64,000 bases of DNA. Origin: an uncultured Rikenellaceae bacterium. Lineage in GTDB: Bacteria > Bacteroidota > Bacteroidia > Bacteroidales > Rikenellaceae. The position numbers and the translations under genes were made by a program. The DNA is taken from NCBI GenBank assembly GCA_944415565.1, contig CALYBQ010000005.1:106061-170060 (forward strand), read 5' to 3'. The notes under the pieces are model-generated. The model did not search any database. It saw only the letters and a list, made by a program, of their open reading frames with translations, and had not been told where the DNA came from. This document shows, in pieces, positions 5,896-11,272 of this stretch; within the stretch, counting starts at the first letter, position 1; every line of letters begins with the position of its first letter.

Positions 5896-6843
5896 TTACG
5901 AACCGGTATAAAGTTGTCCTTGATAGGCGTCCAACTCTTCGAGACGCTTATCGAGCATGGCGAGCAACTGCTCGTTACGCACGAGTCCCCAGTTAGGCCC
6001 GCTGTGGTAACGCGGCGGGGCCTCGCTCGCGAACCGCTCGACCACTATATCGGGACGCAAACGGCGCAGTATCTCTATGAACAAATCTATATACTCGTTA
6101 AGGCACCTGAAAACATACTTTCCGGGGGCGGCGGCATAATCCGTCTCCATAGTTGTCCCCTTGAATATCTGCAACTGATGGAATTTGACCGTCGTCAGCG
6201 GCAGGGCGTTTATGAATCTCGTCTGGGCGACGAGCATCTCGTCCGTTTCGCCCGGCAATCCCAATATGAAGTGTGCACCGCAATGTATGCCGCGCTCGGC
6301 AGTCTTGCCAATAGCCTCAGCGGCACATGCGAAATCGTGCCCACGATTCACTGCCCCCAGCGTCTCGTCGTAACACGACTCCACGCCGTATTCCACAGCA
6401 ACATACCGCTTCTTGGCCAACTCGGCGAAATAGTCGAGTTTCTCATCGTCGATACAATCGGGACGGGTCCCCACGATTATCCCGGCGACCTCGGGAAACG
6501 CCAAAGCCTGCCCGTAAATCTCCTTCAATTCCGAAAGCGGGGCATAAGTATTCGAGAACGATTGGAAGTAAGCGAGAAACTTGTCGGCATTACGATAACG
6601 GCGGCGATGGAACTCTATACCCTCCTCTATCTGTTTGGCGACAGAGTCGCCCCTCATGCAGTAAGAGGGGGTAAACGCCTCGTTGTTACAGAACGTGCAC
6701 CCGCCCACGCCGACCCGGCCGTCCCTGTTCGGGCAGGTAAATCCGGCGTTTATCGTGACTTTCTGGACACGCCCGCCCATCAGCTTGCGAAAATAACCCG
6801 CATAGCTGTTGAAACGACGTTCCGTGCCCCAAGGATACGACAT
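5896..6843 (-). CDS. TIGR01212-family radical SAM protein (YhcC-like)
   Basis: GFTCPNRDGRVGVGGCTFCN matches the cysteine motif of TIGR01212-type radical SAM enzymes. Start chosen at Met24 of the ORF-track protein (MSYPWG...) so that it abuts the upstream gene's stop. The ORF track gives 5896..6912. Confidence 0.7.
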   Translation of the reverse strand: MSYPWGTERRFNSYAGYFRKLMGGRVQKVTINAGFTCPNRDGRVGVGGCTFCNNEAFTPSYCMRGDSVAKQIEEGIEFHRRRYRNADKFLAYFQSFSNTYAPLSELKEIYGQALAFPEVAGIIVGTRPDCIDDEKLDYFAELAKKRYVAVEYGVESCYDETLGAVNRGHDFACAAEAIGKTAERGIHCGAHFILGLPGETDEMLVAQTRFINALPLTTVKFHQLQIFKGTTMETDYAAAPGKYVFRCLNEYIDLFIEILRRLRPDIVVERFASEAPPRYHSGPNWGLVRNEQLLAMLDKRLEELDAYQGQLYTGS

Positions 6844-7553: not shown

Positions 7554-8982
7554 TTCTATTCATCAACAATATGACGGCAACCGTAATCGCCAAAGTAACT
7601 ATGCCGGCCAGCACGGCGGCAGGCACGGTCGACAACCCGATCATCTCGGCAGACCCGAACAAATGATCGGACGTTATGAAGGTCATGAATATCGCCGGTA
7701 TCAGCGACAAGTATATGTTTTTCTTTCGCGAATGCAGATAAACCGTTATCGTCCACAGCGTGAAAACGGCAAGTGTCTGGTTAGCCCAAGCAAAATAGCG
7801 CCATACGACATCGAACTGCATGAGCGTTATTGCAAAGCCCGCAATGAAGAGAGGAACCGATATATACAGTCGACGGCGTATCGTCCTCTGTTCCATTCCG
7901 AGAAAATCAGCGACTATGAGCCTCGCACTGCGGAAAGCCGTATCCCCAGTAGATATAGGCGCGGCTACTACCCCCAATAAGGCGAGCAATCCACCTACCT
8001 TGCCGAGCGTGGTGTTGGCGATATGGTCCACAGCCCATGCGGCATCGTTGCCGTGTGCTGCGAGCTCGTCGTTAAGCGCGCCTACGCCGCCGAAGAAAGC
8101 CATAGCGATAGCGGCCCAAATGAGAGCTATTATACTTTCGCTTATCATAGCGCCGAAAAATACCGGACGGCCTTCCTTCTCGTTGTTCACGCAACGCGCC
8201 ATAAGCGGCGACTGCGTAGCGTGGAATCCTGATATAGCCCCGCAGGCTATGGTGATGAACATGGTCGGGATGATCGGGAATTTCGCCGCATCGGTCTTCA
8301 TATTGGCAAACCCGCTGAATTCCGGCATATCGTACCCGCCGAATATCAACACTGCAAATATGCCCACAGCCATGAATATCAGCGCCGCACCGAAAAGCGG
8401 GTAGATCTTACCGATGATTTTATCGACCGGCAACAAGGTCGCCACAACATAATATATAAGTATCACCCACACCCAGAATTTCGGGATCGTCACGCTACCT
8501 ATGGTCAGGTCTGCGAATCCGGTCAGGCCGTTGAGTATGCCAGCGGGCCCGAGCATGAATACGGCTCCGACCAATACAAGCAACAACACCGTGAAGACCC
8601 TCATAAACTGCTTGACGGTCACACCTAAATATTTGCCGACGATCTCCGGCAGGCTTAATCCGTTATTCTGCAAAGAGATCATGCCAGACACGTAATCGTG
8701 CATGGCTCCGAAGAAAATGCCGCCGAGCGTGATCCACAAAAACGCTACCGGCCCATAGGTCGCACCGAGTACAGCTCCGAAAATAGGCCCCAATCCGGCA
8801 ATGTTAAGAAGCTGGATAAGAAAGGTTTTCCATTTCGGAAGCGGCAGATAATCCACACCGTCATAGCACGTTTTAGACGGACATTCCTTTGCCCTGTCAG
8901 CGCCTACCACACGCTCCAAATACCTACCGTAGGTGAAGTAAGCACCCACAAGCAGAGCAAGGCATACGATAAAAGTGACCAT
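7531..8982 (-). CDS. cstA: carbon starvation protein A (CstA family peptide/pyruvate transporter)
   Basis: 483 aa polytopic membrane protein. The N-terminus MVTFIVCLALLVGAYFTYGRYLERV...LLNIAGLGPIFGAVLGATYGP is characteristic of the CstA family. Confidence 0.85.
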   Translation of the reverse strand: MVTFIVCLALLVGAYFTYGRYLERVVGADRAKECPSKTCYDGVDYLPLPKWKTFLIQLLNIAGLGPIFGAVLGATYGPVAFLWITLGGIFFGAMHDYVSGMISLQNNGLSLPEIVGKYLGVTVKQFMRVFTVLLLVLVGAVFMLGPAGILNGLTGFADLTIGSVTIPKFWVWVILIYYVVATLLPVDKIIGKIYPLFGAALIFMAVGIFAVLIFGGYDMPEFSGFANMKTDAAKFPIIPTMFITIACGAISGFHATQSPLMARCVNNEKEGRPVFFGAMISESIIALIWAAIAMAFFGGVGALNDELAAHGNDAAWAVDHIANTTLGKVGGLLALLGVVAAPISTGDTAFRSARLIVADFLGMEQRTIRRRLYISVPLFIAGFAITLMQFDVVWRYFAWANQTLAVFTLWTITVYLHSRKKNIYLSLIPAIFMTFITSDHLFGSAEMIGLSTVPAAVLAGIVTLAITVAVILLMNRNGKKGIA

Positions 8983-9064: not shown

Positions 9065-9137
9065 GCCGCAATAGCTCAGTTGGTAGAGCGTTTCACTCGT
9101 AATGAAGAGGTCGCGAGTTCAAGTCTCGCTTGCGGCT
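9065..9137 (+). tRNA. tRNA-Thr (anticodon CGT)
   Basis: Manual cloverleaf fold. Acceptor stem gccgcaa/ttgcggc, D-arm gctc-agttggta-gagc, anticodon stem tttca/tgaag with loop ctCGTaa, T-arm gcgag-ttcaagt-ctcgc, discriminator T. CCA is not encoded. Confidence 0.85.
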
Positions 9138-9143
9138 CAGTTT

Positions 9144-9181
9144 GCAGTAACCTGCGTAATACGCAGGTTACTGCTTTTTTT
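9144..9181 (+). terminator. rho-independent terminator after tRNA-Thr
   Basis: Perfect 14-bp stem gcagtaacctgcgt / acgcaggttactgc with loop aat, followed by TTTTTTT. Confidence 0.8.
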
Positions 9182-9247
9182 GCATAAACCATACGAACAC
9201 CGCGCAACAAACATATATCATTCATTGATTGACAACAAATGGTTTAT

Positions 9248-9255
9248 TATATTTG
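9248..9255 (+). promoter_or_regulatory. putative -7 promoter element (TATATTTG) for the islet operon
   Basis: TAnnTTTG match lying 44 nt upstream of the ATG at 9299. No clean -33 TTTG (only ATTG/TTGA nearby). Confidence 0.35.
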
Positions 9256-9298
9256 TGTGTACAACACAAACAATTTGCAATAGTAAAGATTTAAACCA

Positions 9299-9568
9299 AT
9301 GGCGGTATTTTTAGTCTCGGGTCTCATTCTCGCTGTTTTCGTTTCGGCTAACACCGACTCAGCAAAAGATGTTTTGCTATCCCAAGTCGAAGCTATCGCT
9401 AAATGCGAAGCAACGGTAACATGCTCCGGTGAGACAAAAATCTCATGCGAGCGCAAAAAAGACGGCACATGTTCATCTAACAATGATGAAAAAGGCGCAG
9501 GGTATGTCTTATGCTCAGGTGGAGGAGACCCTGATGTCAAAAAGAACTGTAGCTTTTTTAATTCTTAA
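9299..9568 (+). CDS. small secreted cysteine-rich protein, NVEALA-like (PF14055-type) peptide
   Basis: 89 aa with an N-terminal hydrophobic signal/anchor (MAVFLVSGLILAVFVSA). It carries the motif LSQVEAIAKCE, resembling the NVEALA signature. The predicted mature part has six Cys, with Gly/Asp/Lys-rich spacers. AT-rich codon usage. Confidence 0.55.
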   Translation: MAVFLVSGLILAVFVSANTDSAKDVLLSQVEAIAKCEATVTCSGETKISCERKKDGTCSSNNDEKGAGYVLCSGGGDPDVKKNCSFFNS

Positions 9569-9578
9569 ACCATTTATT

Positions 9579-10628
9579 ATGTATATTTTCAGAAAGCTTC
9601 AAAATCTGAAGCGCATCGTTATACCATGTCTATTATTAACAATAACAGCATTCACTTCATGCAAAACCGATAAATTCGATGAGCATATAATTTATCTTAC
9701 TTCAGACAAAGAAATAGACCAATTATCGGATTCCACATTCTTTAGTTCAACAAAATGCATGGTTGAATATGATGGATATATATATGCATCATTATCTCAA
9801 CGGATGCAAATTATCTGTATGGACAAGAACCTGCAATTAAAAAAAACAATCGGCAAACATGGTCGTGGACCTCAAGAGTTCATATATATAGACTGTTTTT
9901 TCATATACGACAGTATATTATGGGTCGGAAACACAGGACAACTGGCACTTATGAAATTTACTCTTGACGGCAACTTTATCAGCACGGAACACAAAACGAA
10001 AAAAAAATACTCTTTAAATGAGCGCTTTGCTGTAGATGATTCTAAAATCTATTTTTCAAAACCGAATATCGACAAAAAAACGTCCTTAGCCGTTATTGAT
10101 TTAAATAAACCAAAGGATAACAATTATAAGGAATTTGGAGCCTTTACCGATTTCGGTCAATCGTATAAAAATAAAATACAAAACAAAAGAGATGTTTTCA
10201 TTACAGACGATTATATCATAACCGTACCAGAAAGCATTCCGGTAATTGAAAAATATGACAAAAATTCTTTAGAACTAATAGAGACATACGACCTCCTGAC
10301 CATCCCCGTCATAGCCGAGGCACTTGAAGCAACTCTCAACCACCCTGATATCGCCGATCCTATCACTACATATTCCATAGCAAGGGATGCCTATCTGCAT
10401 AACGGCATATTATACATAATGCTTCCAACACCAACCATAAAAATGAAAGACGGTCACAAAGAGTACACAGGCATTATGGCTTTCGACATAAAAGACAATA
10501 TCAAATATTTACACCGTTATCCATTCAATGAAGACATGAATATTTTCTGTGTAACCGACGAGTATATTTTTACGGCACCGCTTACAGGCGGAGTCATTAA
10601 AAGATTCCCGCTAAACCCGGAACAATAA
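9579..10628 (+). CDS. lipoprotein, probable 6-bladed beta-propeller (NHL/TolB-like; BF3164/DUF5128-like)
   Basis: Start at the ATG giving the lipobox MYIFRKLQNLKRIVIPCLLLTITAFTSC. The ORF track starts further upstream at 9429, overlapping the peptide gene. Contains GKHGRGPQEF, an NHL/propeller-like motif. About 349 aa, lying 10 nt after the peptide gene. Confidence 0.55.
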   Translation: MYIFRKLQNLKRIVIPCLLLTITAFTSCKTDKFDEHIIYLTSDKEIDQLSDSTFFSSTKCMVEYDGYIYASLSQRMQIICMDKNLQLKKTIGKHGRGPQEFIYIDCFFIYDSILWVGNTGQLALMKFTLDGNFISTEHKTKKKYSLNERFAVDDSKIYFSKPNIDKKTSLAVIDLNKPKDNNYKEFGAFTDFGQSYKNKIQNKRDVFITDDYIITVPESIPVIEKYDKNSLELIETYDLLTIPVIAEALEATLNHPDIADPITTYSIARDAYLHNGILYIMLPTPTIKMKDGHKEYTGIMAFDIKDNIKYLHRYPFNEDMNIFCVTDEYIFTAPLTGGVIKRFPLNPEQ

Positions 10629-10629
10629 T

Positions 10630-11172
10630 ATGAGACTGTGCTTATTAATAATAACCATTGCCACTATAATATGTTCATACGGCTGTAAAAATATAATTGA
10701 CGGCAACAATCGAGGAACGTCACAAACGACAAAAGCCGTACCGACCAAAAGAGACTCTTTAGCCCGCGAAAAAGACCAACGGTTACTGAGCACACTATAC
10801 AACAAGGAGGCCGCTGTTTTCAATACGATCATACCTGATCTGAAAAATGAAAACAGGAACATTATCCTCGTGGTCAGTAAATTCGATTGCGTAACCTGTG
10901 TCGAGGCCGGATTCGATATCATAAGGCAGATAAAAAAGATCAACCGGGCAGCACATACCTACGTCGTCGGTGTAACAAAAGAGGTTTACATCCCCGAACA
11001 GTACAAATACACTGTATACGAAGATATCGACCAAAATGTACAAACCGCGCTAAATTATGCCCCCACACCCGTCATCCTCATATTGAACGGCAATCGCATA
11101 ATCGACCTATATAGTCCGTATGACTCTAAATCGTTATTCGCCACGGATTTCATCAATGAACATTCATATTAA
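10630..11172 (+). CDS. lipoprotein with thioredoxin-like CxxC motif (TlpA/redoxin-like)
   Basis: Lipobox LLIITIATIICSYGC. ILVVSKFDCVTCVEAGFDII is a beta-strand, CxxC, helix arrangement as in thioredoxin-fold oxidoreductases. Starts 1 nt after the upstream stop, so translationally coupled. Confidence 0.5.
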   Translation: MRLCLLIITIATIICSYGCKNIIDGNNRGTSQTTKAVPTKRDSLAREKDQRLLSTLYNKEAAVFNTIIPDLKNENRNIILVVSKFDCVTCVEAGFDIIRQIKKINRAAHTYVVGVTKEVYIPEQYKYTVYEDIDQNVQTALNYAPTPVILILNGNRIIDLYSPYDSKSLFATDFINEHSY

Positions 11173-11220
11173 CGGCAGCGATAATAATTTGATAATATAC
11201 CATTAACACTTACATCAATA

Positions 11221-11249
11221 CCCCCGGACTGTTTAACTCCGGGGGTTTT
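11221..11249 (+). terminator. rho-independent terminator closing the islet operon
   Basis: Stem cccccgga / tccggggg with a 9-nt loop, followed by TTTT. Confidence 0.6.
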
Positions 11250-11272
11250 CACTGCTCGGACAATAACAACAA

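Follow-up and report, generated by a model that had tools for sequence, protein, structure and literature searches.

Peptide loci that carry an oxidoreductase of their own are known, as are thioredoxins paired with an NHL propeller, and both arrangements bear on the locus described here. This locus is a compact AT-rich operon at positions 9299-11172 of a 64,000-nucleotide (nt) stretch of contig CALYBQ010000005.1 from an uncultured Rikenellaceae bacterium (the window). From the list of open reading frames (ORFs) and a reading of the sequence, the operon adjoins a tRNA-Thr gene and consists of three plus-strand genes for (i) an 89-residue secreted-type peptide with six cysteines, (ii) a 349-residue propeller lipoprotein, and (iii) a 180-residue thioredoxin-fold lipoprotein. 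We suggest, at about even odds (a probability of roughly 0.5), that the operon is a self-contained mobile unit in which the thioredoxin-like protein forms or isomerises the three disulfides of the peptide on the propeller as a platform.

In the bacteroidetocin (class IIf) loci of Bacteroidales, a thiol oxidoreductase is needed for full toxin activity and its deletion attenuates the toxin (Coyne et al. 2019, PMC6671954); according to the same paper, Bacteroides has no general disulfide machinery. The present locus is like these loci in that a small cysteine-containing secreted peptide lies beside its own thiol oxidoreductase, a likeness that concerns the roles at the locus. The differences are several. 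Bacteroidetocins have a 15-residue double-glycine leader, whereas the peptide here has a hydrophobic, Sec-type N-terminus of about 17 residues and no GG cleavage motif before the core. Bacteroidetocin loci encode a C39-domain ABC transporter and a protein with five transmembrane segments, neither of which is in the gene lists of the cassettes and flanks analysed here. Finally, the present locus has an NVEALA motif in the peptide and an NHL-type propeller lipoprotein as a third partner.

The sublancin operon sunA-sunT-bdbA-sunS-bdbB of the Bacillus subtilis prophage SPbeta, in which BdbB makes the two disulfides of the peptide (PMC6391423), provides a second parallel. It is likewise a peptide operon on a mobile element with its own thiol-disulfide oxidoreductases, but it is found in a Gram-positive bacterium, includes a glycosyltransferase and a leader-cleaving exporter, and has no propeller. 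BdbB is a DsbB-like membrane protein and not a TlpA-like lipoprotein.

The pairing of the two lipoproteins recalls NHLRC2 and SOQ1, in which a thioredoxin-like motif of the TlpA type occupies a cleft facing a six-bladed NHL propeller, the presumed binding site of a partner (PMC6107167; bioRxiv 10.1101/2021.03.16.435614). In human NHLRC2 and plant SOQ1 the two domains are in one polypeptide with the motif CC(I/V)NC, whereas here they are encoded by two genes 1 nt apart and the motif is D-C-x-x-C. The bacterial NHLRC2 homologues that have been examined had no conserved operon partner; unlike them, the cassette described here has a candidate substrate adjoining. Sequence similarity does not exceed that seen with other TlpA-like proteins, so the resemblance is one of analogous arrangement and not of orthology.

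With TlpA, ResA, CcmG (DsbE), StoA, SdbA and Etrx the thioredoxin-like protein shares the fold, a CxxC at the start of helix 1 and the extracytoplasmic membrane tether, and it has a conserved Thr-Pro pair as its candidate Pro loop. It differs from this family in that it scores below every curated threshold, has Asp in place of the usual Trp before the first Cys and a dipeptide without Pro, and is encoded beside dedicated partners, namely a propeller and peptides. The window peptide and propeller, in turn, are divergent members or close outliers of NVEALA (PF14055) and of DUF5128/TolB_like (PF17170/PF15869), respectively, each of them singly below threshold; unlike the catalogued NVEALA and propeller families, they come with six conserved core cysteines and a free-standing uncatalogued CxxC partner. 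In one related locus (L021), a canonical pair of NVEALA peptide and TolB_like propeller is found in the same locus as the cassette.

NVEALA peptides and DUF5128/TolB-like propellers are expanded in gut Bacteroidota, and we know of no function for either. A search of the available literature library on NVEALA and DUF5128 found nothing, PF14055 matching only Plasmodium gene identifiers; searches on PF17170, PF15869, BF3164 and 'TolB-like 6-blade' returned passing mentions only and nothing on family function; and a query that combined six-bladed, lipoprotein, Bacteroides and cysteine-rich peptide gave no relevant paper. An earlier reading of this DNA from its letters and ORFs (the sequence-only reading) had held that the trio has no experimentally assigned function, and the literature is consistent with this. 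Thus, as judged from the family matches, two of the three parts fall in catalogued families that lack an assigned function and the third belongs to an uncatalogued thioredoxin-like family.

The peptide gene (9299-9568, plus strand) was delimited from the ORF, the peptide alignment and the Pfam NVEALA family. Its product has a hydrophobic N-terminus followed by six cysteines, the number given in the sequence-only reading, which are C36, C42, C50, C58, C72 and C84; the signal is possibly cleaved after VSA17. Residues 29-34, after the signal-like N-terminus, read QVEAIA, a motif of the NVEALA type, and the pattern [NQDSE][VIT]EA[LI][AG] is present in every aligned peptide. Eight peptides from related cassettes have in common the hydrophobic N-terminus, this pattern and a Cys-rich core with kept spacing, and C36, C42, C50 and C72 are invariant in the alignment. 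The core contains 6, 8 or 10 cysteines in 12 of 13 peptides, the remaining one (P0171) having five. The consensus of the peptide family matches Pfam NVEALA at E 9e-6 with 25.7 bits (gathering cut-off 27), individual relatives match at E 0.003-0.1 with 12.7-17.6 bits, and a precomputed PF14055 match is available for one relative (P0169); the window peptide alone gave no Pfam NVEALA match. Together, the motif and the profile scores argue that the peptide is a divergent member or close outlier of the NVEALA family (PF14055), a point absent from the sequence-only reading.

By hand count from the sequence, the mature peptide carries a net charge of about -2, and it is hydrophilic. Just past the likely signal cleavage site lies D20-S21-A22 (window 9356-9364), which fits what we take to be the general O-glycosylation sequon of Bacteroidetes, D(S/T)(A/I/L/V/M/T); D-T-L is at a comparable place in one peptide of L005, and the sequon is not kept across the peptide family. 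Tandem duplication of the peptide gene is common among the related loci (L005 279-873, L011 147-746 and L021 5719-6726), the two full copies carrying 6 or 8 cysteines, and L021 additionally has a shortened 54-residue copy that ends just past an NEALAQCE motif.

The propeller gene begins at the ATG at 9579, 10 nt past the peptide stop codon, and extends to 10628; the thioredoxin-like gene begins at the ATG at 10630, 1 nt past the TAA at 10626-10628, and ends at 11172 (both plus strand). These spacings agree with those given in the sequence-only reading, as does the assignment of both products as lipoproteins: the predicted signal peptides end in a lipobox cysteine, Cys28 in the propeller (FTSC, codon 9660-9662) and Cys19 in the thioredoxin-like protein (SYGC, codon 10684-10686), that is invariant among close homologues.

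For the propeller, the ORF, the matches to DUF5128 and TolB_like and those to NHL profiles point in the same direction. The window protein alone scores 19.9 bits against DUF5128 (cut-off 22.9) and 19.2 bits against TolB_like (cut-off 29.2), all seven of the seven subfamily members match DUF5128 at E <=0.01 (best 1.1e-8), and the subfamily consensus exceeds both cut-offs with 40.2 bits for DUF5128 and 37.3 bits for TolB_like. A profile built from 11 propellers matches NHL domains in the PDB, namely those of Thin (2e-15, three repeats), TRIM2 (4e-10) and TRIM71 (1e-7), and the DUF5128 structure 4raa (5.6e-9); a narrower profile from seven sequences gave weak matches, with Thin at 0.01. The stretch GKHGRGPQEF (residues 92-101, nt 9852-9881) had been picked out as an NHL/propeller motif, and these profile and consensus matches bear that out; within GRGPQEF, G95, G97 and P98 are invariant among the 11 propellers and E100 is kept in at least 90% of them. 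On these profile matches the 349-residue protein is a propeller with NHL-type repeats that probably belongs to the DUF5128/TolB-like group and is predicted to be six-bladed, and the family link adds to what had been noticed before. Beyond the lipobox, the cysteines of the propeller are not conserved, and the propeller of L014 has none after the lipobox and is still paired with a thioredoxin-like protein; a disulfide in the propeller itself is thereby ruled out as what the thioredoxin serves.

The 180-residue protein gave no match at E up to 1 in Pfam or NCBIfam and none in PADLOC. A word-indexed search of 5.8 billion proteins returned three relatives, whereas 160 proteins came up at E <=1e-3 when 1.84 billion cluster representatives were searched exhaustively with a profile, most of them 160-190 residues long with a lipobox or an N-terminal transmembrane anchor. 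In an alignment of 117 family members with a mean column identity of 22%, C87 and C90 are the only invariant columns, and D86, D132, L141, T146 and P147 are each at least 90% conserved. FDCVTC occupies residues 85-90 (Cys codons 10888-10890 and 10897-10899), which places the active site D86-C87-V-T-C90 at nt 10885-10899. T146-P147, encoded by nt 11065-11070 and predicted to lie ahead of strand 148-153, is the candidate cis-Pro loop. The motif, D-C-x-[S/T]-C in the family, is unusual in having no Trp ahead of the first Cys and no Pro within.

Structure prediction with AlphaFold2 (AF2) on an alignment of three sequences was unusable, with a mean predicted local distance difference test (pLDDT) score of 39, and the 117-sequence alignment was used instead, giving a pLDDT of 89 and a predicted template modelling (pTM) score of 0.74. 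The model has strand 76-82, helix 88-104, strand 109-114, helix 136-140, strand 148-153, strand 156-161 and helix 169-179, with C87 directly ahead of helix 1, which starts at residue 88, and C90 in its first turn. Among the best 50 Foldseek matches in the PDB all are of the thioredoxin superfamily and nearly all are extracytoplasmic oxidoreductases of the TlpA/ResA/DsbE/StoA/SdbA/Etrx type. In weak sequence matches of the family profile to PDB entries the CxxC is aligned to CxxC and the TP to the TP/IP of 3lor and 5um7, a pair that we presume to mark the cis-Pro position. The sequence-only reading had placed FDCVTC in a strand-CxxC-helix arrangement and had named as evidence against itself a fold without thioredoxin topology and with cysteines away from a helix N-cap; the model has the topology and puts the CxxC right where helix 1 starts, in line with the Foldseek matches and the invariance of C87 and C90. 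The protein is thus confirmed at the level of its modelled fold as part of a deep uncatalogued branch of the thioredoxin superfamily that is TlpA/ResA-like, and oxidoreductase activity is predicted.

Curated families capture little of this branch: a thioredoxin-like Pfam match (Redoxin, AhpC-TSA or Thioredoxin_2) was found in 3 of the 117 members, and the family consensus reaches 18.1 bits for Redoxin (cut-off 26.6). The bacteriocin-maturation disulfide isomerase family PedC/BrcD (TIGR01295) is matched weakly by two of the 117 (best E 5.6e-5) and by neither the window protein nor the family consensus; it is the commonest NCBIfam match among the 117, tied with GldI. The consensus also matches the disulfide reductase DsbH weakly (E 3e-4). 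The PedC/BrcD and DsbH matches fall short of membership, though both are thematically suggestive. One apparent relative, P0038, was discarded as a spurious match, being an unrelated tandem-repeat protein of 602 residues with seven CVTC motifs.

The genomic context of family members spanning E 1e-110 to 1e-10 yielded 11 distinct cassettes: the window with L002 and L017, L001, L003/4, L005, L006, L010, L011/12, L014/15, L007-9, L021-23 and L013. A DUF5128-type propeller lies directly upstream of the thioredoxin-like gene in 10 of the 11, the exception being L013, and the two genes overlap by up to 4 nt or lie at most 7 nt apart in nine of these ten cassettes and are 66 nt apart in one. Wherever the sequence reaches, a Cys-rich NVEALA-like peptide is found upstream, except in the termite-gut loci L007-L009. 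Unrelated genes flank the different loci (cstA/ubiX, Wzy_C/transglutaminase, GT2/DUF4130, murG/murC and others), the pairwise identities of propeller and thioredoxin-like protein are correlated over eight cassettes (r = 0.92), and across the 10 diverged cassettes identity of the thioredoxin-like protein falls to about 22-30% in hosts with a GC content (the share of G and C) from about 32% to 64%. The sequence-only reading had named random co-occurrence of homologues as a result that would count against it; what was found is a propeller and thioredoxin-like pair in all but one of the cassettes and a peptide upstream in all but one cassette that could be judged. The idea that the three genes are linked by chance or by synteny within one lineage takes comfort from the fact that each window protein singly falls below every curated family threshold, so that naive annotation would list unrelated hypotheticals, but because the order recurs in unrelated contexts with tight spacing and co-divergence it is effectively refuted.

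The closer subfamily is rare in the scanned collections, since these gave nearly nothing: a scan of genome_contigs with the propeller alignment found no relative and one with the close alignment of the thioredoxin-like protein a single weak match in Verrucomicrobiae, metagenome_contigs contained one short locus, the scans of viral_contigs contained no locus, and the plasmid collection contained a sole distant propeller from Persicobacter with no adjoining thioredoxin-like gene. In the termite-gut locus L007 (1524-2443), and in L008 and L009, the propeller is in two ORFs (116-140 and 178 residues) in three independent assemblies, which points to a genuine frameshift or pseudogene, or else to a gene that is split; the thioredoxin-like gene overlaps the end of the propeller by 4 nt. 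A homologous transglutaminase-core lipoprotein gene (36% identity) lies convergently downstream in L003 (4105-6060, minus strand) and L001 (835-1614, minus strand) and is absent from the window; it may represent lineage synteny or an extra accessory component.

In every locus with sizeable flanks (the window, L002, L003, L005, L007, L011, L014 and L021) the cassette lies 4-19 GC points below its flanks, for instance 38 versus 51%, 45 versus 64% and 28 versus 40%, and this AT-richness relative to the host suggests horizontal spread. In L014 (GCA_964423555.1, CAYRFM010000006.1) the cassette is inserted between murG and murC, and on its two sides are the copies of a direct repeat of 168 nt, which (6237-6404 and 8618-8785) are 92% identical and duplicate the 3' end of murG. 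The repeat looks like an integration scar; no integrase was found within the L014 cassette. In the window, a search on either side of the cassette turned up neither direct repeats nor att-like duplications, and the neighbouring flavoprotein gene did not lead to any empty-site contig. From composition and context, then, the cassette looks horizontally mobile, which the sequence-only reading had not raised. The host of L014 has a GC content of about 64% and may not belong to the Bacteroidota.

Comparison with the syntenic strain of L002 adds a second layer. From cstA through the tRNA gene and the cassette to beyond ubiX the two strains are 97-100% identical, save for propeller codons ~118-316 (window 9930-10526, plus strand, versus L002 6230-6830), where identity drops to 56-82% in nucleotides and 62% in amino acids; the thioredoxin-like proteins are 100% and the peptides 92% identical. 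In this mosaic part of the propeller gene the rate of synonymous substitution (dS) is about 1.8 and that of nonsynonymous substitution (dN) about 0.27, giving a dN/dS of about 0.15. Since dS is saturated and dN/dS is low, the segment is an old allele imported by recombination, and diversifying selection in situ on the propeller was ruled out on the same grounds.

How the parts might work together follows a simple scheme. The NVEALA-type precursor would be exported through Sec by its N-terminal hydrophobic segment, which would probably be removed after VSA17, and in the periplasm the peptide would encounter two membrane-tethered lipoproteins produced in fixed proportion. By analogy with NHLRC2 and SOQ1 the propeller may act as a platform that binds the peptide, while C87-x-x-C90 of the thioredoxin-like protein would undergo thiol-disulfide exchange with the six cysteines of the peptide. 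We favour the formation or isomerisation of three disulfides, in a lineage reported to be without the general DsbA/DsbB machinery, after which the folded peptide would be released or kept on the propeller. Because the propeller has no conserved Cys and the peptides are Cys-rich, the peptide is the likely redox substrate and, as far as sequence allows, the likely thiol-disulfide partner of the thioredoxin-like protein. Physical contacts, redox direction, signal-peptide cleavage and the role of the peptide are all inferred; for the last of these, we think a toxin or a signal acting between bacteria the most likely. The sequence-only reading had proposed a dedicated maturation, binding or immunity module, and this is partly supported: fold and co-occurrence are confirmed, and the functional part is a reasonable inference.

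Several observations weigh against this scheme. TlpA-like proteins of diderm bacteria are usually reductants and not oxidants, D-C-x-[S/T]-C without Pro or Trp gives no clear pointer to redox potential, and the cassette encodes no DsbB, VKOR or CcdA partner. The thioredoxin-like gene of L013 lacks a preceding propeller, and no upstream peptide was detected in the cassette of L007-L009. Also, the window peptide is without the positively charged N-terminus of its relatives: it begins MAVFLV, with no Lys/Arg N-region, whereas the relatives begin MKK. A longer N-terminus is ruled out by an in-frame stop at 9284-9286, and because L002 shows the same start the short signal is taken to be real, its export efficiency being uncertain.

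The mobility and the strain variation would also suit a toxin-immunity system, in which a Sec-dependent bacteriocin-like peptide toxin is folded by the thioredoxin-like protein and bound by the propeller as an immunity or decoy protein that shields the cell envelope. An accessory islet that is AT-richer than its flanks, adjacent to a tRNA gene and in L014 bordered by the 168-nt target duplication, peptide genes that often occur in tandem copies, and two strains about 99% identical in which the central propeller blades are swapped and the peptide differs too (92% identity), the thioredoxin-like protein being 100% identical, all have the look of such a system. The cassette, however, encodes no outer-membrane exporter, lysis function or C39/ABC transporter, the hydrophilic mature peptide with its slightly negative charge is not obviously membrane-active, the dN/dS in the swapped segment speaks for recombination of old alleles and not for ongoing positive selection, and no antibacterial activity is known. 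We therefore regard this explanation as unlikely, though worth keeping in view.

Less probable again, in our estimate, is that propeller and thioredoxin-like protein are the two subunits of a periplasmic redox enzyme of the NHLRC2/SOQ1 kind that acts on other envelope proteins, with the peptide as an accessory, regulator or anchor. That the two genes are tightly coupled and co-diverging, that the propeller profile matches NHL repeats and that NHLRC2 and SOQ1 have a thioredoxin motif opposite an NHL propeller would all be expected of such an enzyme. Yet the CC(I/V)NC motif is missing, its place being taken by FDCVTC, no fusion of propeller and thioredoxin was present among the 150 family matches listed, and the small proteins are Cys-rich with kept spacing, as would be expected of a substrate.

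A third explanation reverses the chemistry: the thioredoxin-like protein would maintain the peptide cysteines as free thiols, much as TlpA acts on the copper chaperone ScoI, for metal binding or modification, and the propeller would assist. The structural neighbours include TlpA and its complex with ScoI, Sco1 proteins and CcmG-type reductants, the conserved Asp just before the nucleophilic Cys could raise its pKa and so favour a reducing character, and in the larger loci the cassette adjoins genes for a Wzy_C/TPR membrane protein and an S26 peptidase, hinting at further processing. Nearly all Cys counts are even, however (6, 8 or 10), and the peptides have no conserved His, Met or Asp ligands, which fits disulfides better than a metal site; there is no linked metal transporter or chaperone; and a Bacteroides-type periplasm is said to lack the general oxidising system that such a reductase would counteract. 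We consider this explanation improbable, and chance adjacency, as argued above from the recurrence of the trio, far more so.

A low-GC islet at 9150-11260 (33-44% GC in 300-nt windows) carries the three genes, the cassette having a GC fraction of 0.381 against 0.508 for the remaining window in the composition profile. To its left, outside the operon, lies tRNA-Thr (CGT) at 9065-9138 on the plus strand (ARAGORN; Rfam tRNA, 72 bits), followed by a perfect 15-bp hairpin at 9144-9174 with a T-run (9144-9181, plus strand; inverted-repeat search and terminator scan), which by its sequence is taken to end the tRNA transcript and to set the tRNA apart from the cassette. Direct reading identified a TATATTTG box at 9248-9255 (plus strand), 44 nt upstream of the peptide start, as the candidate promoter of the operon; it matches TAnnTTTG, which we take to be the -7 promoter element of the Bacteroides type. 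In the gap that divides the cassette from the convergent flavoprotein (UbiX-like) gene, a GC-rich hairpin with arms AATACCCCCGGA and TCCGGGGGTTTT at 11217-11253 is a probable terminator, found as an inverted repeat and uncalled by the consensus terminator scan. PADLOC gave no match for anti-phage defence.

Larger versions of the cassette exist. In L021-23 (L021 660-5600) it follows a module of a canonical NVEALA peptide, a TolB_like propeller, a DUF1573 protein, an S26 signal-peptidase homologue and a Wzy_C/TPR membrane protein; the DUF1573 protein has an N-terminal region with a CxxC that is weakly matched by the thioredoxin-like family (E 3e-5). Immediately ahead of the L003 cassette is a homologue of the Wzy_C/TPR gene (L003 192-2051; 32% identity, E 3e-74), and such genes thus adjoin two cassettes that differ greatly. 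These extra genes may supply dedicated leader-cleavage and glycosylation-like functions. No homologue of the Wzy_C/TPR protein, the S26 peptidase or the DUF1573 protein is present in the 64-kb window, and the window thus represents a minimal version.

A bolder proposal joins these strands: the cassette would be a minimal, previously undescribed mobile system for Sec-dependent peptide production, in which NVEALA precursors are disulfide-knotted by a split NHLRC2/SOQ1-like foldase, the propeller holding the peptide and the thioredoxin-like protein reacting with it, and in which swappable blades set strain specificity through immunity or recognition. Taken as a whole we hold this to be speculative and rather doubtful. 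If true, it would provide a first function for two large families of gut Bacteroidota, NVEALA and DUF5128, and a bacterial model with a known substrate for the mechanism by which a thioredoxin works with an NHL propeller.

The analysis also has implications that rest on the cassette itself. It reveals an unannotated family of thioredoxin-like proteins, comprising about 160 clusters at 50% identity and annotated in neither Pfam nor NCBIfam, and the cassette ties the NVEALA and DUF5128 families to the chemistry of a CxxC thioredoxin fold and to a candidate substrate with 6-10 cysteines. If propeller and thioredoxin-like protein cooperate, the pair would constitute a bacterial counterpart of NHLRC2 and SOQ1 that is amenable to genetics. 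Finally, the mobility of the cassette, its AT-richness and the allele swap in its propeller suggest that it serves strains in competing with or recognising one another.

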